Origin: Candidatus Woesearchaeota archaeon
GTDB taxonomy: Archaea; Nanobdellota; Nanobdellia; Woesearchaeales; JAAOYA01
NCBI GenBank assembly: GCA_018221105.1
Contig: JAAOYA010000010.1
Span: 145,678 to 209,677 of the forward strand
Reading direction: 5' to 3'
DNA: 64,000 bases
Shown: positions 1-56,010 of the stretch, piece by piece
Layout: every line of letters begins with the position of its first letter
Position numbering within the stretch: position 1 is the first letter of the stretch
Position numbers and translations under genes: made by a program
The notes under the pieces: model-generated
What the model was told of the DNA's origin: nothing
The model's input: only the letters and a program-made list of their open reading frames with translations
Databases searched by the model: none

Positions 1-876
1 GTTTCCCTTCTCCACAAACCTTTTGATATCATTAATTCTATTTTTACTAACCATACGCTGATATGTTATTTCAATATCTTTTGCATTATATCCTTTTTCT
101 CTTCTATTTACATAAATGTATGGAAATAATTTTTCGGGTTGTATTAAAAAAGTATAATATTTATCGCCTACACCACCATATATTGCAGGGATAGTAACTT
201 TTCCGAGTTCTTTGCATTCTTTATTTCTAAATAAGTAAGCAAATAATTGATATTTTGTACTAGGACCTAATTGATTACTTAAATGTTGAAATGATTCAAA
301 AGTATTTCCATCTATGAAATGGATATTTTTTTCAGAAGCTAAAGAAACATTTTTTTCAAAATCTTCATTATTTTTTGAAATAATTAAGAATGAAATTTTT
401 AGTTTTTCAGGCTCATATTGCTTTTTTATAGATTTTGATAATCCTTTTTTTATTTTAGATATTTCACTAATCTTTTCTTTTATTTTTTCTTTTTGATTTT
501 CACATAAAATAATAAAAACATTATGTTTGTCTTTTGCAAATATATGAATCTTCTTTCTTTCGTCACCATCTAATATAGTAAAATTAGAATCACTAGCTAT
601 TTGAGAAAAACCCATTCTTTCAAAAAGAACCCATGTTTCATCGATTAAAAAATCCAATTCTTCTTTGTCTTTTCTGAAGACAAATTCTCTTTTTAGTTCT
701 CTATTTACTTCCCATCCTTTTTTAATATATTCATTTTTATGCTCTTTTCTAATTTTTTTTTCAATAAATTTTTTAGATTTTATCTTAGATATTTTCACTA
801 GTTCTTTTCCTGATAGTAACGTTCCAAATATATCTGGTCCTCCAATAGAAATTTTTTCTTTTATATCATCAGACAT
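1..876 (-). CDS. hypothetical protein (3' end runs off window start; absent from ORF track because no stop in window)
   Basis: Manual translation of reverse strand from ATG (rc of 874-876): MSDDIKEKISIGGPDIFGTLLSGKELVKISKIKSKKFIEKKIRKEHKNEYIKKGWEVNRE... continues open to position 1 with ordinary, non-low-complexity composition. The + strand ORFs 314..496 and 665..886 are F/S-rich low-complexity antisense artefacts. Confidence 0.5.
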   Translation of the reverse strand, partial: MSDDIKEKISIGGPDIFGTLLSGKELVKISKIKSKKFIEKKIRKEHKNEYIKKGWEVNRELKREFVFRKDKEELDFLIDETWVLFERMGFSQIASDSNFTILDGDERKKIHIFAKDKHNVFIILCENQKEKIKEKISEISKIKKGLSKSIKKQYEPEKLKISFLIISKNNEDFEKNVSLASEKNIHFIDGNTFESFQHLSNQLGPSTKYQLFAYLFRNKECKELGKVTIPAIYGGVGDKYYTFLIQPEKLFPYIYVNRREKGYNAKDIEITYQRMVSKNRINDIKRFVEKGN

Positions 877-21055: not shown

Positions 21056-22486
21056 TCACTTCAATAGTTTTTTTAGTATTTGGCGAACTTCCTGTGGTGA
21101 AGCTGCTCCTTTTGATTGGCGCATCACTTGTCCCATCAAAAAATTAAAAGCTTGTTCTTTACCTTTAGCGTATTCTTCTACTGTTTTTGGGTTATCATCA
21201 ATTGCTTTTGCAGCCCACAATTCTAATTGGTTTGAATCACTGACCATTTTCAAACCATGTTTTTGCACGTAGTGTTCTACATCAAATGGTTTTACTACTA
21301 GTTGTTCTAAGATTTTTTGTGCTACTGTTTCCGTGATCTTTTTTTGCTCTAATAGTATTAATAATTTGCTAAAGTGTGTGTGATCAAATTTGATATCACT
21401 AAAGTCTAACTTGTTATAATTTAAAACTCTGGCTAGTTCGCGACGAGCCCATTTTGCTGCTAGTATAGGATCAACTTCTTTTGTTAGTTTTTCAAAAAAT
21501 TCTGACAGGTTATAGTCTTGTGTTAAAACTTTTGCGTCATCGCTTGATAAATTGAATTCTTTTTTGTAGCGTTTTTCTCTATCATGATGTAATTCTGGCA
21601 AGGTTTCCTTGATTGTTTTTTGCCAATCATCAGTTAATTCAGTGATTGTCAAATCAGGGTCTAATATGTAGCCATAATCATCTTCTGATTCTTTAGTTCT
21701 CAAACTTTGAGTTATTCCTGTCTCACTATCCCAAGAGCGTGTTTGTTGAACTATTTTTTGTCCTTGCAAGAGTGCTTCTTTTTGGCGCAATAACTCATAC
21801 ATTAAGGCTTTTTCTATTTCTTTAAATCCACTAATATTTTTTATTTCTGCTCTTGTATAGCCTGAGGCTTTAATTGAAACGTTAGCGTCTGCTTTTATTG
21901 TTCCGTCACTAATATCGAATATTTGTAGGTATTGCAAAACAGTAATTAGTGCTTTTAGAAAATCTCTTGCTTGTGCTGCGCTTGTTATTTCTGGTTTTGT
22001 AACAATCTCTAATAGTGGTCTTCCTGAACGATTATAATCTACTAGTACACTGTTTGATTTGTGCATTCCGCCAGGATGCATTAGTGCTGCTGGATCTTCT
22101 TCAATGTGCACTCTCTCAAGTCCAATTTTAGTGCCATCAGGCAATTGTAAGTGACCACCAACTCCTATTGGTCTATCATATTGTGTTATTTGATAGTTTT
22201 TGCTCATGTCTGGATAAAAATATGTTTTGCGACTAAAGATTAGTTCTTTGTCAATATCACTGTTTAATGCCATGCAAAGTCGCAGTGCGTAATCGACTGC
22301 TTTTTTGTTAAGAACTGGCTTGCTGCCGGGCAAGCCCAAGCACACATCACAAGTTAATGTGTTAGGTTCACTGCTTCCTCTTGTTGGACAACTACAAAAT
22401 AGTTTAGTAAGCGTGTTTAATTCTACGTGAACTTCTAATCCTATTACTTCGTCAGTTTTGAACTTCATCTTGTTGTAGTGCTCCAA
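21056..22486 (-). CDS. gatB: Asp/Glu-tRNA amidotransferase subunit B
   Basis: GLEVHVELNT...CSCP N-terminus and C-terminal YqeY-like domain; 476 aa (too short for GatE). Confidence 0.9.
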   Translation of the reverse strand: MEHYNKMKFKTDEVIGLEVHVELNTLTKLFCSCPTRGSSEPNTLTCDVCLGLPGSKPVLNKKAVDYALRLCMALNSDIDKELIFSRKTYFYPDMSKNYQITQYDRPIGVGGHLQLPDGTKIGLERVHIEEDPAALMHPGGMHKSNSVLVDYNRSGRPLLEIVTKPEITSAAQARDFLKALITVLQYLQIFDISDGTIKADANVSIKASGYTRAEIKNISGFKEIEKALMYELLRQKEALLQGQKIVQQTRSWDSETGITQSLRTKESEDDYGYILDPDLTITELTDDWQKTIKETLPELHHDREKRYKKEFNLSSDDAKVLTQDYNLSEFFEKLTKEVDPILAAKWARRELARVLNYNKLDFSDIKFDHTHFSKLLILLEQKKITETVAQKILEQLVVKPFDVEHYVQKHGLKMVSDSNQLELWAAKAIDDNPKTVEEYAKGKEQAFNFLMGQVMRQSKGAASPQEVRQILKKLLK

Positions 22487-23885
22487 TTAGTTGGAATAGT
22501 TTTTCTTCTTTTAGTTGGTCTGCTATAAACATCATTCCTATTGGCAATCCTTTGTGCTCTATTAATGGAATGCTAGCGTGTGGCAGTCCTGCAAGGTTTG
22601 GCCCTGCTGTCATGACGTCCATCATATAATTTTGCAGTGGTGTTAATTTTTTTGCTTCATTAAATGTTGGCGGTATAACAGGCATAGTAGGACAGAGCAA
22701 TAAGTCATAGTCTTTGAATGCTTTTTGATATTCTTTAACCATTAATTGGCGGCTTTGTTGTGCTTTGATATAATATGCGTCGCGATAACCTGCCATTCTA
22801 GCAAAACTTCCTAGCATTATACGACGTTTTGCTTCTTCGCCTAAGTGTTTGCTTCTAACTGTTGAAAAATAATCATTAAAACTACCCTCTAGTTTTTCGT
22901 GAGCTCCATAGCGCATGCCACAATATTTTGCCAGATTAGTTGAAGCTTCTGTTGTTGCCAGTATGTAATAAGTTGGCACTGCATAATCTGTTATTTGTTT
23001 TAAACTGATTTTTTTTACTTTTGCACCAATAAACTCTAATTTTTTTATTGTTTGATTTAATGCTTCCATTACTTGCACGTCAACACCTTTGCCCATTGAT
23101 TCTTCTATGACTCCTATTTTGAAGCCTTTGATTGATTTTTCTAAGTATTCAGCATAATCAACTGTTGGAACCTCTAATGAAGTACTATCTTTTTGGTCGT
23201 GACCACTGATGACTTCTTGCACTAATGCTACAGCTTCAGGGTTTGTGCCCATCGCGCCTATCTTGTCTAGGCTATTGCCATAATCTATTAGTCCATAACG
23301 TGATACCCTGCCATAGGTTGGGCAAAACCCTATAACTCCACAAAATGAAGCTGGTGCGACAATGCTGCCGCCTGTAGACTCTCCTAGGCTTACGTGTTCA
23401 AAACTTGCCAGTTTTGATATTCCTCCACTACCGCCTGATGAACCGCCACAAACACGTTTTTTGTCAACTGGGTTTAATGGAGTTTTATAGCCTAACCCTA
23501 CGTTTGTTGCGAAACTGCCAAATCCAAACTCGTCCTGTGAGGTTTTACCTATTATTATTGCTCCTTCATCAATAACGCGCTGCACTGCCGTGGCATTGAA
23601 TAATGGCTTGTAGCCTTTTAGTATTCTAGAGCCTGCAGTGCTTTCCACGTCTTTTACATTAATGCAATCTTTGACTGAAATGAATAGTCCTGCTAATCGT
23701 TTACTTTTAGCATTCTTTTTTAGTGTCTTTGCTTGCTCTAGTGCTAAGTCTTCACAGATAACATTAAAGTAATGGTATTCTTTGTTGATTTTCTTAATTT
23801 CTGCCAATACTTTTTTTGTTTTTAGAACCATGTCAACTTTACCATTTTGTACTTTTTCAATATACTCGTCAATTCTCATTTTCAT
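22452..23885 (-). CDS. gatA: Asp/Glu-tRNA amidotransferase subunit A (amidase)
   Basis: Amidase signature GGSSGGSGG...GESTGGSIVAPASFCG; 477 aa. Confidence 0.9.
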   Translation of the reverse strand: MKMRIDEYIEKVQNGKVDMVLKTKKVLAEIKKINKEYHYFNVICEDLALEQAKTLKKNAKSKRLAGLFISVKDCINVKDVESTAGSRILKGYKPLFNATAVQRVIDEGAIIIGKTSQDEFGFGSFATNVGLGYKTPLNPVDKKRVCGGSSGGSGGISKLASFEHVSLGESTGGSIVAPASFCGVIGFCPTYGRVSRYGLIDYGNSLDKIGAMGTNPEAVALVQEVISGHDQKDSTSLEVPTVDYAEYLEKSIKGFKIGVIEESMGKGVDVQVMEALNQTIKKLEFIGAKVKKISLKQITDYAVPTYYILATTEASTNLAKYCGMRYGAHEKLEGSFNDYFSTVRSKHLGEEAKRRIMLGSFARMAGYRDAYYIKAQQSRQLMVKEYQKAFKDYDLLLCPTMPVIPPTFNEAKKLTPLQNYMMDVMTAGPNLAGLPHASIPLIEHKGLPIGMMFIADQLKEEKLFQLIGALQQDEVQN

Positions 23886-30965: not shown

Positions 30966-30985
30966 AAACAGAAATTTCTGGTATT

Positions 30986-31258
30986 GGCGAGCTAGGCCGG
31001 GTTACTAGCCCTTAACCTTTACCGCAAACGGGCTTTACGGCGGGGCTTAAAGCGCAAGGCGGCTTTAGTGAACATTGTTGGTCCTATCAGTTGCTGTCGA
31101 CGTCTCGTCCTTTAGGGTTTGCCTTTGTGGAAAACTGGTCAGACCCTGACGGGAGCAGCCATAACCTTTTAGGTAGGTGTCTAGAGGGTAGCGGGATTGA
31201 GGCGCTGGCAGGATTAAACCAACAGTGCCATTTTAGTCCACTTGTTGCCCGCTCGCCA
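30986..31258 (+). ncRNA. ffs: signal recognition particle RNA (7S RNA)
   Basis: GC-rich island in AT-rich DNA. 5' GGCGAGCUAGGCCGGG pairs with 3' CCCGCUCGCC. Helix-8-like GGUCAGACCCUGACGGGAGCAGCCA (cf. conserved GGAAGCAGCCA). ORF 31091..31273 inside it is spurious. Confidence 0.7.
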
Positions 31259-34150: not shown

Positions 34151-34609
34151 TCACCTATAACTTTTTTGTCTTTTTGCTCTTGCTTTTGAATCGTTTGGCT
34201 TGCACATTTCTTTGCGTCGCACATCTGCCACTAGTAATGTTCTATCATAATCAAGGTATTTTTTTCGCAGTGTTTCATCATTGTTGAACTCTACAATTGC
34301 CTTTGCTATTGCTAAGCGTGCTGCATCTGCTTGTCCGTTGATACCGCCACCTTGAACGTTTACTGAAATATTGATTTTTTTTGCTGCGTCACCGCATAGT
34401 ATTATTGGCTCTAATAGTTTTTCGCGCATTAGCATTGGTTGCACGTGGTCTATCATTTGCGAGTTTACGCGCACTAATCCTGTTCCACTGGTAATTTTTG
34501 CTCTTGCTACTGCTGTCTTGCGCTTTCCTGATACTATGACTGTTCTAGTTTTAGGCTGTTTTGGTTTTGATTTTGCCTTGCTTGTTTTTTTCATTCTAGT
34601 TCTTCCCAC
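34151..34609 (-). CDS. rps9: 30S ribosomal protein S9 (uS9)
   Basis: C-terminal ...SKARAKRQKSYR. Confidence 0.85.
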   Translation of the reverse strand: MGRTRMKKTSKAKSKPKQPKTRTVIVSGKRKTAVARAKITSGTGLVRVNSQMIDHVQPMLMREKLLEPIILCGDAAKKINISVNVQGGGINGQADAARLAIAKAIVEFNNDETLRKKYLDYDRTLLVADVRRKEMCKPNDSKARAKRQKSYR

Positions 34610-35015
34610 CCAGTAAGATTATTAGGTCTTTTACTTTAACATATTTTAAAGTTGGTAATTTGTTTAAGCTTGCTTGTTTGAATTGTACTGTTTCTTTGCC
34701 CTCAAATGTTTGTGGCATCGTATTATAGCACATCACGCGTTTGAAGGCCTCGCTGCCTTTTGATTGTTTGTATGGTATCATTGAGCGTATTATTCTTCTT
34801 ACGAATCGTTCTGATGTTCTATGGATTTTTGGTTTTCCGTGAGGGTTTGTTCCAAGATTTCGTAAGTGTTGGTATTTTGCCAGTAGGTTTTCTTTTGTTC
34901 CACTAATTATTGCTTCTTGACAGTTTACAATGTCTACTTTTTCTCCTAGCATTACTTTTTTTGCTGCAAAACTTGCAATTCTTCCCACGATTTGATCTCT
35001 TGCGTCTATAATCAT
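34596..35015 (-). CDS. rpl13: 50S ribosomal protein L13 (uL13)
   Basis: MIIDARDQIVGRIAS...; conserved cluster position. Confidence 0.85.
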   Translation of the reverse strand: MIIDARDQIVGRIASFAAKKVMLGEKVDIVNCQEAIISGTKENLLAKYQHLRNLGTNPHGKPKIHRTSERFVRRIIRSMIPYKQSKGSEAFKRVMCYNTMPQTFEGKETVQFKQASLNKLPTLKYVKVKDLIILLGGKN

Positions 35016-35066
35016 TTTAAATTTCTCCGAAATTTAAAGCTTGAAAATTTTTAATTTTCATTGTTT

Positions 35067-35450
35067 TTAACCGATAATTTTTGCTTTTTTTCCTTTTGGA
35101 TTTTTTATTATTGCTTGTGCTAAGTCTAAGACTTCGCCTTTAGCGTTTTGGATTTTTTCTTTTGCGCTTTGTGAAAAACTGTAAGCTGCTATTGTTAGCT
35201 TGTGGTTTAAGTCACCTGTTGCTAGTACTTTTCCTGGCACTACTACAAAATCGTTTTCTTTGGTGTAACGATTGATTCGTGATAGGTTTACTTGGCGCCT
35301 TTTACGAGTAGGCTTTTCTAAGTCTACTGCTACTCGATTCCACAAAGGTGCTTTTTCTTTGCTTGCAGTTTTTTTAAGCTCGCTTATGAGCCCGTTTAAT
35401 TGTTCGTGTTTCATTTTTTTGTGATTATAATGCGGGCGCTCAAAAATCAA
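35067..35450 (-). CDS. rpl18e: 50S ribosomal protein L18e (eL18)
   Basis: Sequence and position between L13 and RpoD. Confidence 0.75.
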   Translation of the reverse strand: MIFERPHYNHKKMKHEQLNGLISELKKTASKEKAPLWNRVAVDLEKPTRKRRQVNLSRINRYTKENDFVVVPGKVLATGDLNHKLTIAAYSFSQSAKEKIQNAKGEVLDLAQAIIKNPKGKKAKIIG

Positions 35451-35483
35451 AGATTTTTGGCTCCCTCATTTTCTTTTTGAAAA

Positions 35484-35591
35484 TGCGGGGGACGGGGTTT
35501 GAACCCGCGCAGGCACTAAGCCACAAGGCTTTTACAAACAGTTGAGTTGTTTTCCTCAACCTTGCCCGTTTGACCACTCCGGCACCCCCGC
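35484..35591 (-). tRNA. tRNA-Leu (anticodon GAG) with ~24-nt intron in the anticodon loop
   Basis: Folds as GCGGGGG-UG-CCG-GAGUGGUCAAA-CGG-G-CAAGG-[UUGAGGA]-intron-CCUUG-15-nt variable arm-GCGGG-UUCAAAC-CCCGU-CCCCCGC-A. Class II architecture; canonical Y32-U33-GAG-R37-A38 loop; no encoded CCA. Confidence 0.7.
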
Positions 35592-35597
35592 AAAGCT

Positions 35598-36377
35598 TTA
35601 TGCTTTTTTGAGGAGGTTTACAAAAGTGTCAAGTTTTTTGTCAAATTCGTCTGCTGCAGTTATCAGAGCTTTTTTATTGTCTAATTGTCCCCAACCTTCC
35701 ATTTTTATTAGAAAGTCTTGGTCTGTGCTTTCAATTTTGACTTGTCCTGCGCTTATGTCTTCACACTCGCCGCATAGGTTGCAATCGTTTAATTTTTTGA
35801 TTGTTAGTTTGCCGCTTTTTACTTCGAATACTTTTTTTGGACAATTATCTGCTATGTCTTGTGCGTTTTCTGGTTTTAATATTTTGATTTTTGGCATGTA
35901 TTGATAATACATTATTCCTGGTGTCCATTTCGAGTGTGTTTTTCCTATTCCTAGTACTGCTGTAGCTTCTAGTTCTAATTCTTGGTCTTCTAGCAGGTTT
36001 ACTATTAGTGTTTTGGGATGTACTGGTTTGACTTTAGGATCTTTTGATTTCAAGTCTGAAGCGTAGACTGTTTTTGGCCCCTTAGCTTTTAATATTAGTT
36101 TTAATTGGCATTGAGCACAACCGGCGCCTTTGCACTTGCAATCTTCTACCATGTTATAACTTTTCAGGTCAGTGCTTAAAACTAACAGTCCTAGACGGTG
36201 TGCTATTGTTTCATCGTAGAGTATTGAGCTATTTTTTCGAAATTCTACTATTTCTACTGCCATTGTCGGCGTCAATCCTGTGTACGAGCGCCTTATTGTG
36301 TTAGCGTAGGCTGGTGTTGAACCAGTAATTTCAAAATCCAGTTTATTATCTTTTTTTGCCAATTGTTTGATTTTCAT
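35598..36377 (-). CDS. rpoD: DNA-directed RNA polymerase subunit D (Rpb3-like) with 4Fe-4S domain
   Basis: Cys clusters [11 protein letters not shown] and [10 protein letters not shown]. Likely start at the internal Met (MKIKQLAKK...), which abuts the S11 stop. Confidence 0.85.
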
Positions 36378-36826
36378 ACTCTTCGCCCCCTTCGACCGCC
36401 TTTTTTTCGACACCCATCGTGCGGTACTGGTGTCACGTCTGTTATCACACCTATTCGAAGTCCCATTCTGCTAATCGCTCTTACTGCTGCTTGAGCTCCT
36501 GGCCCAGTGTTTGCTGGCCCGTTGTGACCTCCTGGCGCTTTAATTTTTACGTGTAATCCTGTAATGCCTTTTTCTTTGGCTGCTTCTGCTGCTCTTTTTG
36601 CTGCCATCATTGCCGCTGTCGGGCTTGATTCCATTCGATGACTTTTTACTACCATTCCACCGCTTGCTTTGCTGATGGTTTCTGTTCCTGTCATGTCTGT
36701 GATGTGAATTATTGTATTATTGTAACTTGAGTATATGTGTGCTACTGCCCACTTGAGGTTTTCGTTTGTTGGCCTTGAGCGGTGTTGGTGTTCTCTTGAT
36801 GGCCTGTTTTGGTGTTCTCGTCTCAT
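36374..36826 (-). CDS. rps11: 30S ribosomal protein S11 (uS11)
   Basis: [20 protein letters not shown]...[19 protein letters not shown]. Confidence 0.88.
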
Positions 36827-37551
36827 TTTGTTTCTTCTTCTGCTTTTTGTGCTGCTTTTTCTAATTCTGCTTTTTCATCTTGTGTTACTACTTCTTTTTC
36901 TGAGTTTGTGATTGTCTCTTGTGCGTCAATTATTACTTCTTTGTCGAATACTTCGTCAATTGATGGAGCGTCTTCTTCTGGATCTGTTATTGTTTTTGCG
37001 TCTTTTTGCTCGATTGTTTCTTTTTTGATTTTTTGTTTTTCAATGATTCTTTCTGGGTGATTGTCATTTGATAAACTGCTTTTTTGGCTGAACTGTATTG
37101 TTTTTTCTTCGTCAAGACTTACCAAAAATGATGGTGTTGTAATTTTTTTATCACCTATTGTTACGTGGTGGTGTACTATGAGTTGTCTTGCTTGTTTTGG
37201 GCTTCTTGCAAGTCCTTTTTTTACTAGTAGTGCGTCTAAGCGTCGATTCATTATAGCTTCTGTACTTAGACCTAAAATGTCGTCTAGGTTTTGTTCTTTT
37301 TGTAGTAGTCCGTAGCGTTTTAGCCTGTGCAGTAATTGTTCTCTTTCAATATCTATTTGTTTTGATTGTGATCGAATGATTCTTTTGGAGTGTTCTTTGA
37401 ATTTTTTTAGTAGGCTGTTGACTCGCCAGATTTCTTTTTTGTTTCTTAGTCCGTAATCGTATAAGAGTTTTTTTTCTGTTTCAATGCGTGCTTGCTCCCA
37501 AGGGTGCACTGGGCCACTGTATTTTTTTCTGTGTTTTCTTGGATCTCCCAT
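36823..37551 (-). CDS. rps4: 30S ribosomal protein S4 (uS4) with ~60-aa acidic C-terminal extension
   Basis: N-terminal S4 domain plus the S4 RNA-binding domain, then a Glu/Lys-rich tail. Confidence 0.85.
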
Positions 37552-37560
37552 TTTAAATCA

Positions 37561-38022
37561 CTATTTTTTTCTTTTTACTCCTAGGCTTCCTTTGCCTTTG
37601 TTTTTTCTAAAGTTTGATTTTGTTCTCTGACCGCGCAGTGGTAAGCCCCAGGTGTGTCTAAATCCTCTAAAACTCTTGATTTTCTTTATTCTTTTGAGGT
37701 CTTCTTCTTTTGCCATCATCAAATTAGTACTTGAAACGTGCATGTCGACTCCTGTTTCATAGTCTTTTTGTCTGTTGTACATCCAATTTGGCATTCCTGC
37801 TTTTTGCGGGTTTTGTACTGCTTCGTCTAAGGCTTTAATTTCAGAATCTGTTAGTGTGCCTGTTTTTTTGTTTGGTGCAATGCCTACTAGTTTGCATATT
37901 GCGTTTGCAAAGCTAAAGCTTACTCCTTTGACTTTTTTTAATGCTATACCAACATTTTTTTTGCCGTCTATGTCGGTGTTGGCTATTCTTATCAAGTGTT
38001 TGAAATCTTTGGATTCACTCAT
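37561..38022 (-). CDS. rps13: 30S ribosomal protein S13 (uS13)
   Basis: S13 family sequence; first gene of the cluster. Confidence 0.88.
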   Translation of the reverse strand: MSESKDFKHLIRIANTDIDGKKNVGIALKKVKGVSFSFANAICKLVGIAPNKKTGTLTDSEIKALDEAVQNPQKAGMPNWMYNRQKDYETGVDMHVSSTNLMMAKEEDLKRIKKIKSFRGFRHTWGLPLRGQRTKSNFRKNKGKGSLGVKRKK

Positions 38023-41862: not shown

Positions 41863-41880
41863 TTTTTGTGTTTGTAGTGT

Positions 41881-42200
41881 ACAGGGGTTATAAGCCGCCT
41901 TTTGTCAAACCCGAAAACAAAACTTTTTTCCTGTTTTGTTCGATGGTTTGCGCTGGTATTTGACTTAGCGTCTAATGACTTGCACCGGTCGAGGTACGCA
42001 CTCGTTTCATCCTTTCCTTCTGAAGCGTCAAAGGGTTAACTGACACCAGTCACCTGGTGCTTCGCGCTTATCATTCTCATATCAGAGGTGGTTTCGTTGC
42101 TGCGTGGTTTTCCCAGGATTTCTCCTGCTGCCATAAAGCAGTGACCTTTTTTGGTGGGCGGACTTTCCTCAGTACATTGTACCGTTAACCAGCCACCCCC
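41881..42200 (-). ncRNA. rnpB: RNase P RNA
   Basis: GC-rich island. Minus-strand sequence contains GAGGAAAGUCCGCCC (CR-I, P4 5' strand) and ACAAAAGGCGGCUUAUAAC (CR-V, P4 3' strand). Confidence 0.7.
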
Positions 42201-42224
42201 ACTACTATAACAAGGATTCTTAGA

Positions 42225-53118: not shown

Positions 53119-54360
53119 GTGTGGCAATTGGCATTACTAGGTTTTGGCAAGAAAAAAAATTCAACAATTGATTCTACAACACCAGAGGCTGCGCCGCCAC
53201 CACCACCAGAACCAGAAGACACTGATATTGACAAATTACAAGCTGATTTTAGTAAGATAAGCAACGATGAAGGTGCGGACACAGGACTTAATAGTGCTCC
53301 AGACTTAAATTTTGATCTTCCACCACTGCCAGATTTGGGAGGTGATACTAAAACAGTTGATAAACCAAAGCCTAAGGGTCCATCTTTAGATATTGACTTG
53401 CCGCCAGCACCTGATAGTACTTCAATGCCAAAAACTGAAGTTTCAACACCTGATATCAAACCTGTTGATTTAGAAATGCCTCCAGAGCCTCCAAGTTCGA
53501 AACCACCAGCAAAACTAGAGCCTCAAAAACCTTCCAGTGATAAAGAATTGCCACCACTTCCAACAGAATTGCCAAGCGCTCCACAAAAAACTGAAGTTTC
53601 AACCATTAATACTGCGCCACTTCCAGAACCTGACGCTATTGATGCAGTTTTAAGTGGAAAACCAGTAGAGAAAAAAGAAAAAGAAGAGCTTAAGGTTCCA
53701 GCGTTACCTCAAAAGCTTCCAGAGCCACCAAAAGCAACACCTATTCTGAAACCTAAGCCTAAAAAGAAAGGATTGTTTGCAAAAAAAGTCGTTCCTCAAA
53801 AACCTGTTGTTGTTGGTGCTATAGAGTCAGAGACTGGAGCTCTTGATCAAATAATGGGAGGCTTAAAAGAAAAGCAGCCAGTAATAGCTACGCCTGTACA
53901 GTCAATTGTTACCCCGCCAAAGTTGCCTTCATTAAAAGAACCTGCCCCAGTGGTTCCTTCTTTAAAAACTGAAGCTACTAAGCTTCCAGCACCAACTGTT
54001 AAACCTGTAAGTTTAGAAAATCCTCCAGAGCGCTTGCCACCAATTGAAGATTTAGGAATTACCAAAGAAGAGTTAGAACATGCTAGGACAATGATTACAC
54101 AAAAATTGTCAAGTACGAAAACTACGGGTTTTGGTCCTCCAAAACCATCACCACTATATGTTAAACTAGAAAGTTATAAGTCATTAGATTCAGACCTGCA
54201 ATTTTTGAGCGCTAAACTGGATGACGCTAACAAATTAATCGCTAAAAGCAAAAGAACACTTGCTGATAAAGAAGCACAGTTTAGACAATGGAGTAGTATG
54301 ATTGAAGAAATTCAAAGAAAATTATTATATGTTGACAAAAAAATTTTTGGTGAGAGCTAA
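53119..54360 (+). CDS. Pro/Glu/Lys-rich intrinsically disordered protein with C-terminal coiled-coil domain
   Basis: ~300 aa of PxxP / DLPPLPD-type repeats with no TM, then PLYVKLESYKSLDSDLQFL... helical domain. Confidence 0.6.
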   Translation: MWQLALLGFGKKKNSTIDSTTPEAAPPPPPEPEDTDIDKLQADFSKISNDEGADTGLNSAPDLNFDLPPLPDLGGDTKTVDKPKPKGPSLDIDLPPAPDSTSMPKTEVSTPDIKPVDLEMPPEPPSSKPPAKLEPQKPSSDKELPPLPTELPSAPQKTEVSTINTAPLPEPDAIDAVLSGKPVEKKEKEELKVPALPQKLPEPPKATPILKPKPKKKGLFAKKVVPQKPVVVGAIESETGALDQIMGGLKEKQPVIATPVQSIVTPPKLPSLKEPAPVVPSLKTEATKLPAPTVKPVSLENPPERLPPIEDLGITKEELEHARTMITQKLSSTKTTGFGPPKPSPLYVKLESYKSLDSDLQFLSAKLDDANKLIAKSKRTLADKEAQFRQWSSMIEEIQRKLLYVDKKIFGES

Positions 54361-54585: not shown

Positions 54586-54909
54586 ATGGAACAAGATATT
54601 TTTTTTGTTGGCGTTGACAAACCAGACCTACTAAGGCGCAATTTAATGGAAGCTTCAAAGCTAACAATAAATTTTTTTCACCAAGCTAACGAGTTTCAAT
54701 CACTGCGACAGCGAAAAATACGCTTGTTAGAACAACTTTCTGAAGTAGTAGTCAAAACTAATGCTTTGATTGGAGAGTTAAAACATTCTTTTCCAAACAT
54801 TGATTCTTTACCACTGCCACAATTAGACATTGTAGCGCACAATGCAAACCTTCAAGCATTAGAGAATGAACTGACAGATATTGAAAACCAGTTAGACCAA
54901 CTCAACTAA
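54586..54909 (+). CDS. small coiled-coil protein (paralog 3)
   Basis: DIFFVGVDKPDLLRRNL... N-motif; 1-nt spacer from the previous gene. Confidence 0.55.
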   Translation: MEQDIFFVGVDKPDLLRRNLMEASKLTINFFHQANEFQSLRQRKIRLLEQLSEVVVKTNALIGELKHSFPNIDSLPLPQLDIVAHNANLQALENELTDIENQLDQLN

Positions 54910-54984
54910 ATAGTTTTATAAATAATTCATTAGTTCTAGCATCACATTCGCGGGTATCAAAAATAAATATTTTTGGGACCCGCG

Positions 54985-55180
54985 CAGTACCTTTGCGGGG
55001 GTAGGAAAGCGGTCAAATGAAAATCGGGGATTTCCAAAGCTCTGAAATCCTGCGGCTTTCAGATCAAATCCGCTGGACTCAAGAATTATTGAGTGCGGGT
55101 AACAAACCAAGTTTTTTGATGGCGAATCCGCCCATTATTGTGGAATCCAGTCCCTTAGTGGGTTCGGGGGTTCGAATCCC
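54985..55180 (+). tRNA. tRNA-Leu (anticodon CAA) with two predicted introns (D-arm ~51 nt; anticodon loop ~61 nt)
   Basis: Exons assemble to GCGGGGG-UA-GGA-AAGCGGUCAAA-UCC-G-CUGGA-[CUCAAGA]-UCCAG-UCCCUUAGUGGGUUC-GGGGG-UUCGAAU-CCCUC-CCCCCGC-A (class II Leu). First insertion 55008..55058 is flanked by TCAAAT direct repeats; second 55075..55135 follows the canonical anticodon loop. Confidence 0.55.
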
Positions 55181-55260
55181 TCCCCCCGCATTTACCACTC
55201 TAAAACAATAATCTTTAAATAAAAGCAATTGCTTGACTGAACAACTGAGGGGAGAACATT

Positions 55261-56010
55261 ATGAAACTTACACTTGCAGAACCAAGATATTTAAAAGACA
55301 GTGTTAGTATAATTAGTGATTTAGTCAACGAAGCACGTTTTACTATAACAAAAGACGCTGTTGAACTTGTTGCTATGGACCCTGCTAATGTTGCAATGGT
55401 AGTGTTCAAATTATTATCTAGCAGTTTTGTCGAATACACTATTAAAGAAGACACCAGTATCGCAATAAATTTGTCAAACTTAAAACAAGTATTAGCACGA
55501 GCAAAAGCTAATGATATGCTAACTTTAGAGCTTGACAAGGACGCTAGCAGACTAATTGTCAAATTCAAAAGCAACACTATAAGAACTTTTAGCTTGCCAA
55601 TTCTTGATTTAGAAGAAAAAGAACAAAAAGTTCCAGAACTAACTTTTCCAATAACCATTGAGACAAGCTCAGCAGTACTCAACGAGGCAATCGAAGACGC
55701 TGACGTTGTAGCAGAAAGCGTGAATTTCATTGCAGAAAAAAATAAGTTGACACTTTTAGCTGAAGGCGACCTCTCAAATGCTAACATTGAAATTAGCGCT
55801 GATGACGAGACTAAAATCCAGGCTGAGGGCATGGATAAAGTTAAAGCAAAGTATTCAATTGAATACATGAAAAAAATCATTAAAGGCTCAAAACTGTCTG
55901 ATAGAGTTAAAGTTCAATTCAATAAAGATTACCCATTAAAAGTAGAGTACAAAAGCGTTGACAAAGTGTTAATGACTTTCATACTAGCACCACGAGTAGA
56001 AAACGATTAA
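55261..56010 (+). CDS. pcn: DNA polymerase sliding clamp (PCNA)
   Basis: 249 aa; MKLTLAEPRYLKDSVSIISDLVNEARF... PCNA N- and C-domains. Antisense ORF 55215..55880 is a Ser-rich artefact. Confidence 0.88.
   Translation: MKLTLAEPRYLKDSVSIISDLVNEARFTITKDAVELVAMDPANVAMVVFKLLSSSFVEYTIKEDTSIAINLSNLKQVLARAKANDMLTLELDKDASRLIVKFKSNTIRTFSLPILDLEEKEQKVPELTFPITIETSSAVLNEAIEDADVVAESVNFIAEKNKLTLLAEGDLSNANIEISADDETKIQAEGMDKVKAKYSIEYMKKIIKGSKLSDRVKVQFNKDYPLKVEYKSVDKVLMTFILAPRVEND

Follow-up and report, generated by a model that had tools for sequence, protein, structure and literature searches.

Two bulge-helix-bulge introns in a probable tRNA-Leu(CAA) gene from a Woesearchaeota archaeon

A stretch of 64,000 nucleotides of DNA from a Woesearchaeota (DPANN) archaeon (referred to here as the window) was found to contain a tRNA-Leu(CAA) gene whose three exons are separated by two introns, each bordered by a motif of the bulge-helix-bulge (BHB) type (Table 1). 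We consider it probable (about 0.87) that the gene is functional and that both of its introns are of the BHB type; their splicing we infer. Interruption by two introns is already known in archaea and the window gene adds another member to this type. A first-pass annotation of the locus had proposed a tRNA-Leu(CAA) with one canonical intron and one non-canonical intron in the region of the D-arm, and this was borne out by ARAGORN, by the Rfam model RF00005, by covariation in the stems, by the BHB motifs and by recurrence in related genes. All of the sequence elements it listed are present, although its coordinates were 10 nt too low, the gene lying at 54995..55190 and not at 54985..55180. The insert sizes of ~51 and ~61 nt were correct; the insert boundaries were wrong as given, but when shifted by +10 they fall within 1 nt of the BHB junctions and yield the same mature sequence. 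The non-canonical site does belong to the D-arm region, but position 21/22 follows the last D-loop nucleotide and is not within the D-stem.

Table 1. Features of the tRNA-Leu(CAA) locus (window coordinates).
Feature	Position	Strand	Description
tRNA-Leu(CAA) gene	54995..55190	+	196 nt, three exons and two introns
Exon 1	54995..55016	+	aligns base for base with intron-less relatives
Acceptor stem, 5' strand GCGGGGG	54995-55001	+	exon 1; followed by U8 A9
D-stem, 5' strand GGA	55004-55006	+	exon 1; D-loop then runs to A21 (55016)
Intron 1	55017..55067	+	51 nt; position 21/22; relaxed BHB (HBh' type)
Exon 2	55068..55083	+	A22, D-stem 3' strand UCC (55069-71), G26 (55072)
Anticodon stem, 5' strand CUGGA	55073-77	+	exon 2; loop C32-G37; CTGGA-CTCAAGA at 55073-55084
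Anticodon CAA	55080-55082	+	exon 2
Intron 2	55084..55144	+	61 nt; canonical position 37/38; hBHBh' motif
Competing hairpin ACUCAA (55077-82) / UUGAGU (55089-94)	55077..55094	+	minimum-energy fold
Exon 3	55145..55190	+	A38, then anticodon stem 3' strand UCCAG (55146-50)
Long variable arm	55151-55165	+	exon 3
T-arm GGGGG-UUCGAAU-CCCUC	55166-55182	+	exon 3
Acceptor stem, 3' strand CCCCCGC	55183-55189	+	exon 3; discriminator A73 at 55190
Upstream imperfect palindrome CGCGGGU...ACCCGCG	54949..54984	+	36 nt; GCGGGT at 54950, ACCCGC at 54978
Alternative TATA-like element TTTTATAAATAA	54912..54923	+	read from sequence; ~75 nt upstream of the gene

Removal of the 51 and 61 nt inserts and joining of the exons gave an 84-nt class-II tRNA which was called as tRNA-Leu(CAA), with all arms, by ARAGORN. 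U8, A14, G18 G19, U33, a purine at 37, the T-loop UUCGAAU and A73 are all present in the spliced molecule, and CCA is absent from the DNA, which ends at A73. The spliced product is ~93% identical to intron-less relatives, is collinear with three of them (L030, L034 and L046), and when aligned with L034 differs at 6 of 84 positions, four of which make up two compensatory pairs. The first-pass annotation had staked the gene on a covariance-model scan, and RF00005 aligned to the unspliced sequence over model positions 1-71 of 71 with 31.9 bits, above the gathering score of 29; this full-length alignment was obtained with permissive filters only and carries two large insertions. Default ARAGORN and an Rfam scan in gathering mode made no call at the locus. 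A Leu-specific covariance model (R1) which had been built without the window gene covered only 55093-55190 (51.1 bits) and not the whole gene, taking a segment of intron 2 as a pseudo 5' arm, probably due to a hit-length limit, and was not counted as support.

The reading of the anticodon as CAA follows from the splice register that is supported by the BHB motif; an alternative ARAGORN register (anticodon CAG, intron at 35/36) was rejected as it is without BHB geometry. The gene is not split or permuted, as the three exons are collinear inside 196 nt. A search of 54900-55300 with the Rfam intron families (E <= 10) gave no match and, given this result and the insert sizes, self-splicing group I or group II introns were excluded.

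The window also encodes archaeal RNase P RNA and archaeal SRP RNA, and a PCNA gene lies 70 nt 3' of the tRNA with 58-73% identity to Candidatus Woesearchaeota / GTDB Nanoarchaeota metagenome-assembled genomes (MAGs). No exact-protein record was found for the open reading frame upstream of the tRNA. A second hidden tRNA gene of the window, for Leu(GAG) at 35484-35591, also carries a BHB intron. In many Woesearchaeota MAGs a tRNA-Leu(CAA) gene is found 1.5-2.5 kb upstream of PCNA; a lack of PCNA synteny, as judged from 700 nt of upstream sequence in 30 related genomes, was therefore rejected. Upstream of the closest PCNA relative, at 76% identity, there is no tRNA.

The junctions were judged by the established BHB geometry, in which each strand of a 4-bp central helix is followed on its 3' side by a bulge of 3 nt that is cut between its second and third nucleotides. 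Motifs of the BHB type were present at both introns, and folding of the junctions, as proposed in the first-pass annotation, gave that of intron 1 in the minimum-energy fold and not that of intron 2. Counted back from G26, intron 1 lies between A21 and A22. Its central helix, GGUC (55011-14) with GAUC (55062-65), has four of four pairs including one G.U, the bulges are AA|A at 55015-17 and at 55066-68, and an inner helix of 5 bp (UGAAA 55018-22 / UUUCA 55057-61) leads into a rod-like hairpin formed by the remainder of the intron. The 5' bulge is clean, the 3' splice site lies in an internal loop of 3x4 nt, and because the D-stem provides the outer closure across this loop we assigned the motif to the relaxed HBh' type. 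Unconstrained minimum-energy folding of 55004-55072 reproduced this structure exactly.

The TCAAAT direct repeats reported earlier at intron 1 are present, starting at 55013 and 55064. Seven splice registers within the repeat would give an identical mature RNA, and a single one of these seven (55016|55068) has BHB geometry. We estimated the chance of a 4/4 central helix together with a flanking helix of at least 5 bp at ~5.7e-4 per register, which amounts to a conditional chance of ~0.4% for the seven registers. When all junction pairs of the precursor were considered, 50 loose BHB-like motifs were found with 48 expected by chance, so that the BHB evidence counts only conditional on registers that are compatible with a tRNA.

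A pair of direct repeats which flanks an insert, with an inverted repeat just inside, is also what would be expected if the 51-nt insert were a MITE-like element which had duplicated 6 bp of its target site (TCAAAT) and which ended in inverted repeats of 5 bp (TGAAA/TTTCA). We regard this as barely credible. The direct repeat is itself accounted for by the near-palindromic central helix GGUC/GAUC and the two identical AAA bulges of the BHB, and neither the window nor the ~270 kb of related loci contained a second copy of the insert. Moreover, intron 1 is homologous to a 49-nt intron at exactly the same tRNA position in a related gene, L016 (z = 8.9; 0 of 1000 shuffles equal; 38 of 54 columns identical), while the tRNA bodies of the two genes are only ~68% identical. 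The 21/22 introns of four other relatives (L004, L008, L020 and L045) are unrelated in sequence and without a TCAAAT-type repeat, yet they keep the BHB.

With these four genes and L016, the 21/22 site is occupied in five related genes. Across the six genes, the window gene included, the BHB helices at 21/22 were 96.3% paired with compensatory changes at five of nine pairs, compared with 22-56% pairing in controls in which the partner strand had been slid. The covariation score was 0.80 against 0.31 for shuffled data, and none of 500 shuffles reached 0.80; the junction registers were picked partly by BHB score, which biases these values towards pairing. The third pair of the central helix, between exon nucleotide 20 and an intron nucleotide, is U-A in the window gene and L045 and C-G in L004, L008 and L020. 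Fixed-length junction segments were used for this comparison, as the RNAalifold consensus was misregistered by a MAFFT misalignment of the central hairpin.

Covariation was also seen in the mature structure. When 11 sequences, either spliced or intron-less, were aligned, the stems of the cloverleaf were 99.2% paired, with seven compensatory pairs, compared with ~55% in slid-partner controls. Pair 11:24 (55005:55070), which straddles intron 1, is G-C in the window gene only and C-G in ten relatives.

Related genes were collected in two ways. A search with a degenerate pattern for the 3' exon yielded 17 metagenome contigs carrying tRNA-Leu(CAA) and tRNA-Leu(UAA) genes with 0-3 insertions. The MAG relatives were located with a covariance model trained solely on relatives and were then resolved by spliced alignment. 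ARAGORN called 17 of 17 spliced products as tRNA-Leu(CAA). Among relatives the tRNA-Leu(CAA) gene has between zero and four introns which are spread over six sites. L030, L034 and L046 have none, and a single intron is found at 37/38 in L002 and L042, at 21/22 in L020 and at about 30/31 in L023. Two introns are present in L022 (15/16 and 37/38), in L017, L005, L006, L013 and L014 (30/31 and 37/38) and in the window gene (21/22 and 37/38, of 51 and 61 nt), three in L008 (21/22, 37/38 and 53/54) and in L004 (21/22, 30/31 and 59/60), and four in L016 (21/22, 30/31, 37/38 and 53/54).

The window comes from a metagenome-assembled genome, and both introns are covered by one assembly only. The contig of an independent assembly, L048, is identical to the window gene from 55150 onward but begins at that position, 3' of both introns, and a break within the gene suggests that the assembly graph branches where the 3' exon is conserved. 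Reads of multiple tRNA-Leu loci or strains, joined into a chimera, might have produced the inserts. A chimera would not be expected, though, to place two BHB-flanked inserts in the one register that restores a tRNA, and intron 1 has a homologue at the identical site in a second MAG. As several independent MAGs and metagenome contigs share the architecture, we hold an assembly artefact to be highly improbable.

Intron 2 has a less regular splice motif. In the register 55083|55145 the anticodon stem serves as the outer helix, and the central helix, CUCA (55078-81) with UGUG (55139-42), has three of four pairs and one U.U mismatch. The bulges are AG|A at 55082-84 and GA|A at 55143-45, and the inner helix is a weak one of A/U pairs. 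No other register that yields the mature sequence has BHB geometry. At 37/38 the exon strand of the BHB is formed by nucleotides 32-35 (PMC4090602); this strand is invariant, and for that reason the central helix at this site cannot covary. A central helix with three of four pairs was also seen in 6 of 11 related 37/38 introns and in the intron of the window tRNA-Leu(GAG). The possibility of a nested intron inside intron 2 was rejected, as no convincing inner BHB was found and loose motifs occurred at the chance rate.

A CTCAA/TTGAG helix (55078 and 55089) had been put forward earlier as the BHB helix of this intron. That assignment did not hold, as this helix, formed between the anticodon loop and the 5' end of intron 2, competes with the BHB. 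The resulting hairpin sequesters the anticodon and puts the 5' splice site of intron 2 into a hairpin loop, and for the anticodon arm plus intron 2 it is 8.9 kcal/mol more stable than the fold constrained to the BHB. The intron of L042 has the same competitor hairpin, yet its central helix (CUCA/UGAG) is perfect.

An imperfect central helix and a far more stable competing fold would be in keeping with a decaying tRNA pseudogene, from which the inserts are never removed, with UUG read by another tRNA-Leu. The absence of a call by default ARAGORN and the gathering-mode Rfam scan points in the same direction. Only 64 kb of the genome is seen, so a second Leu(CAA) copy is possible, and tRNA-Leu(UAA) could in principle read UUG, in which case the gene need not be essential. 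Against this, the universal exon nucleotides are intact and every stem pairs, the G-C flip at 11:24 across intron 1 is compensatory, and the BHB helices covary across six genes. The one-mismatch central helix is shared with six of eleven clearly conserved relatives, and the orthologues are interrupted likewise, each of them still yielding a perfect spliced tRNA. Decay of the gene is consequently improbable in our estimation, and a functional, spliced tRNA-Leu(CAA) remains the preferred reading.

The competing hairpin may have another meaning. Intron 2 showed no significant overall similarity to other 37/38 introns (z <= 1.8), and the only motifs they have in common are UUAUUGAGU, which belongs to the competing hairpin and is conserved in the introns of L042 and L013, and GAUG. 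The introns of L042, L013, L014 and L008 contain UUGAGU followed by a D'-like box (AUGA/CUGA), a stem-loop and a C'-like box ([U/C]GAUGA). In these four introns the stem-loop between the boxes shows compensatory changes, and the fifth nucleotide upstream of the D'-like box pairs with C34. In the window intron the guide is in register with C34 and the boxes are degenerate (CGGG and UGAUGG). CUCAA/UUGAG might then represent a guide paired with its target, as part of a box C'/D' half-guide encoded in the intron which would direct 2'-O-methylation of the wobble nucleotide C34 before splicing; we offer this tentatively and think it rather unlikely. The window copy of the guide, with its degenerate boxes, may be a relic. 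No terminal C/D box pair was found in the introns of the window gene or of the four relatives, and the Rfam C/D box RNA families gave no relevant match at the locus.

A box C/D guide in the intron of archaeal pre-tRNA-Trp directs Cm34 and Um39 (PMC2584109), and C34 of Pyrococcus tRNA-Leu(CAA) has been predicted as a C/D target in trans (PMC7668247). As in the pre-tRNA-Trp of Euryarchaeota, the canonical 37/38 intron here contains a segment complementary to the anticodon loop; unlike the tRNA-Trp guide, the introns have no terminal C/D pair and measure 43-61 nt compared with ~100 nt (PMC2584109). If the idea were correct, tRNA-Leu(CAA) would be the first tRNA other than tRNA-Trp with a methylation guide encoded in its intron, and the case would come from a DPANN lineage.

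A stable hairpin had also been noted in the leader of the gene. The hairpin is non-random, with a folding energy of -19 kcal/mol (z = -5.6) that none of 200 shuffled sequences matched, but it may be promoter DNA rather than a hairpin of leader RNA, because its loop is an A/T-rich, TATA-like palindrome (~54958-54975) centered ~28 nt upstream of the mature 5' end. TATA-like elements at comparable distances were read by eye upstream of tRNA-His and tRNA-Leu(GAG) in the window. The alternative TATA-like element, TTTTATAAATAA, resembles CTTTATAAAATAA found upstream of tRNA-His, and a start from TTTTATAAATAA as promoter would place the palindrome in the transcribed leader.

If the gene functions as we propose, it would be transcribed into a precursor of ~196 nt carrying two protein-spliced archaeal introns. 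An EndA of relaxed specificity would cleave within both 3-nt bulges of the BHB at each intron, D-loop nucleotides G18 G19 U20 C20a being paired with the 3' end of intron 1 to form the central helix at that site, and a ligase of the RtcB type would join the exons. The 84-nt product, to which CCA would be added post-transcriptionally, would decode UUG. These steps, from transcription through EndA cleavage and ligation to UUG decoding, are predicted from sequence. DPANN archaea, among them a Woesearchaeote, have been described with an alpha4 EndA which carries an L3 insert, with more tRNA disruption and with incomplete predicted tRNA sets (PMC5829648), and from this literature the endonuclease of the window organism would be expected to be of the alpha4 type with L3. 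No match to the EndA families PF01974 and PF02778 or to RtcB was found among 30 mid-sized open reading frames of the 64-kb window. Archaeal tRNAs with several introns and relaxed BHB motifs have been on record since 2003-2008 (PMC4090602).

The practical weight of these observations lies in annotation, as tRNA genes with introns such as these are missed or miscalled by default tools. In its intron mode ARAGORN miscalled relatives as Gly, Val, Ser or 'Stop' tRNAs, and the training set of the tRNAscan-SE 2.0 models for non-canonical introns contained none from DPANN (PMC8450103). In a survey from 2026, only 96 of 208 complete Nanobdellota genomes had a tRNA set covering all 20 amino acids, and for the gaps the survey proposed either split tRNAs or a failure of detection (bioRxiv 10.64898/2026.05.13.725050). 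The suspicion that some disrupted tRNA genes of DPANN have escaped identification had been voiced earlier by Kaneta et al. (PMC5829648). Hidden multi-intron genes offer a concrete and testable explanation for the missing Nanobdellota tRNAs. The series of related genes with zero to four introns points to intron turnover like that of Thermoproteales in a lineage reported to have an alpha4 EndA, and Woesearchaeota would make a good natural test set for the substrate range of EndA and its co-evolution with intron gain.

The closest known system is the pre-tRNA-Glu(UUC) of Methanopyrus kandleri, which likewise combines an intron of the HBh' type, in the 3' part of the D-loop (20b/21), with a canonical intron at 37/38 (PMC5829648). 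In both genes the D-loop intron has a relaxed HBh' motif whose central helix is built with D-loop nucleotides (PMC5829648). The mature M. kandleri tRNA-Glu has been seen by RNA-seq (PMC5829648), whereas splicing of the window gene is predicted from its sequence. The window gene further differs in that it is a class-II tRNA-Leu, from DPANN and not Euryarchaeota, with the insertion site one nucleotide further 3' (21/22). The EndA of M. kandleri is an (alpha-beta)2 enzyme without a specificity loop, while DPANN reportedly have mostly alpha4 enzymes with the L3 insert (PMC5829648).

Thermoproteales and Thaumarchaeota resemble the window clade in having both canonical and non-canonical BHB introns, in the way intron positions differ among close relatives and in the difficulty of annotation that results (PMC4090602, PMC8450103). 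Pyrobaculum islandicum tRNA-Pro(UGG), for example, has introns at 25/26, 37/38 and 56/57 (PMC4090602, PMC8450103). These organisms belong to another superphylum than the window organism and have an (alpha-beta)2 EndA with an L1 (CSL) loop, and position 21/22 is absent from the reviewed list of intron positions (20/21, 22/23, 25/26...), a list which ends in 'etc.' (PMC4090602, PMC8450103). ARMAN-2 (Micrarchaeota), which is also a DPANN archaeon, has multi-intron genes and relaxed-BHB introns at 53/54 and 59/60 (PMC3239211), sites which recur in the window relatives L008, L016 and L004. The ARMAN-2 introns were described in the T-loop whereas the non-canonical intron of the window gene is in the D-loop, and the ARMAN-2 EndA is of the epsilon2 type, which is not reported for Woesearchaeota (PMC3239211).

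Among the related loci compared with the window gene, the locus L016 carries a tRNA-Leu(CAA) gene interrupted by four BHB-flanked insertions, located at 21/22 (49 nt), 30/31 (22 nt), 37/38 (16 nt) and 53/54 (28 nt). When spliced, the exons form a perfect cloverleaf which ARAGORN calls as Leu(CAA). The stated maximum number of introns per tRNA gene is three (PMC3239211, PMC8450103) and no mention of four BHB introns within one tRNA gene was found in the literature searched. Three further related loci (L004, L008 and L045) contain tRNA-Leu genes with three introns each, and compensatory changes between loci were seen by eye in the BHB central helices at 53/54 and 30/31. The coordinates of these genes, and of features within the window, are presented in the table below.

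Coordinates of tRNA-Leu genes with introns and of open reading frames near the window tRNA-Leu(CAA)
Feature	Location	Strand	Details
tRNA-Leu(CAA), four introns	L016:1131-1329 (contig CAZBGH010000019.1)	+	21/22, 30/31, 37/38 and 53/54
tRNA-Leu, three introns	L004:507-765		21/22, 30/31 and 59/60 (59/60 intron 124 nt)
tRNA-Leu, three introns	L008:1296-1484		21/22, 37/38 and 53/54
tRNA-Leu(UAA), three introns	L045, 3' exon 584-628	-	8/9, 21/22 and 37/38; 196 nt
tRNA-Leu(GAG)	window 35484-35591	-	24-nt canonical 37/38 intron
413-aa ORF	window 53119-54360	+	low-complexity; proline-, lysine- and glutamate-rich
107-aa ORF	window 54586-54909	+	directly upstream of tRNA-Leu(CAA)

The output of ARAGORN in intron mode (-i) was examined over L001-L047 and compared with the calls made on spliced products. 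In this mode multi-intron Leu genes were wrongly reported as tRNA-Gly(gcc), Ser(aga), Val(cac), Asp(atc), 'Stop'(tta) or Leu(aag/cag), and the 'anticodon-loop introns' of 60-80 nt assigned to them were spurious. At L023:4275-4360 (minus strand), the default setting returned Leu(caa) while -i gave tRNA-Gly(CCC) with a 15-nt intron. The second hidden tRNA of the window, tRNA-Leu(GAG), was called neither by default ARAGORN nor by the Rfam gathering-mode scan; it was recovered both by ARAGORN in intron mode and, at 44.3 bits, by an Rfam scan with permissive filters. Three of the four pairs form in the BHB central helix of this gene, and its intron also contains a CUCAAC segment complementary to its own anticodon loop.

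For the window tRNA-Leu(CAA), the best alignment to the Leu-specific covariance model was a truncated pseudo-tRNA at 55093-55190 (51.1 bits). This alignment was favoured because GUGCGGGUAACAAA (55093-55106), a part of intron 2, is similar to the 5' acceptor and D-arm of tRNA-Leu in relatives (GCGGGGGUAGCAAA), a likeness that either arose by chance or is what remains of a 5' half. An independent Logan assembly from the same organism (L048, SRR15671256) contains the counterpart of the window from 55150 onward and breaks off inside the tRNA, exactly where the anticodon stem ends, probably because the assembly graph is broken at the conserved 3' exon. As L048 ends within the tRNA, both window introns are supported by a single assembly.

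The 107-aa ORF had no Pfam match. Information-processing genes surround the tRNA (window 21056-23885, 34151-38022 and 41879-42205, all minus strand, and 30985-31258, plus strand). GatB adjoins GatA (tRNA-dependent amidotransferase), tRNA-Leu(GAG) and tRNA-His are flanked by ribosomal proteins S9, S11, S4 and S13, and the window also encodes RNase P RNA and SRP RNA.

The 37/38 introns of five related tRNA-Leu(CAA) genes (L042, L013, L014, L006 and L008) share a conserved order of xUGA, stem-loop and GAUGA, in which the stems vary by compensation (GGC/GCU, GGUC/GACC, GGCCUU/AAGGUC, GGCU/AGCU and UUGCA/UGCAA). Upstream of the xUGA box lies a guide to the anticodon loop, with the fifth nucleotide 5' of the box pairing with C34. 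This arrangement resembles a K-turn or box C'/D' motif and may serve as an L7Ae/fibrillarin site.
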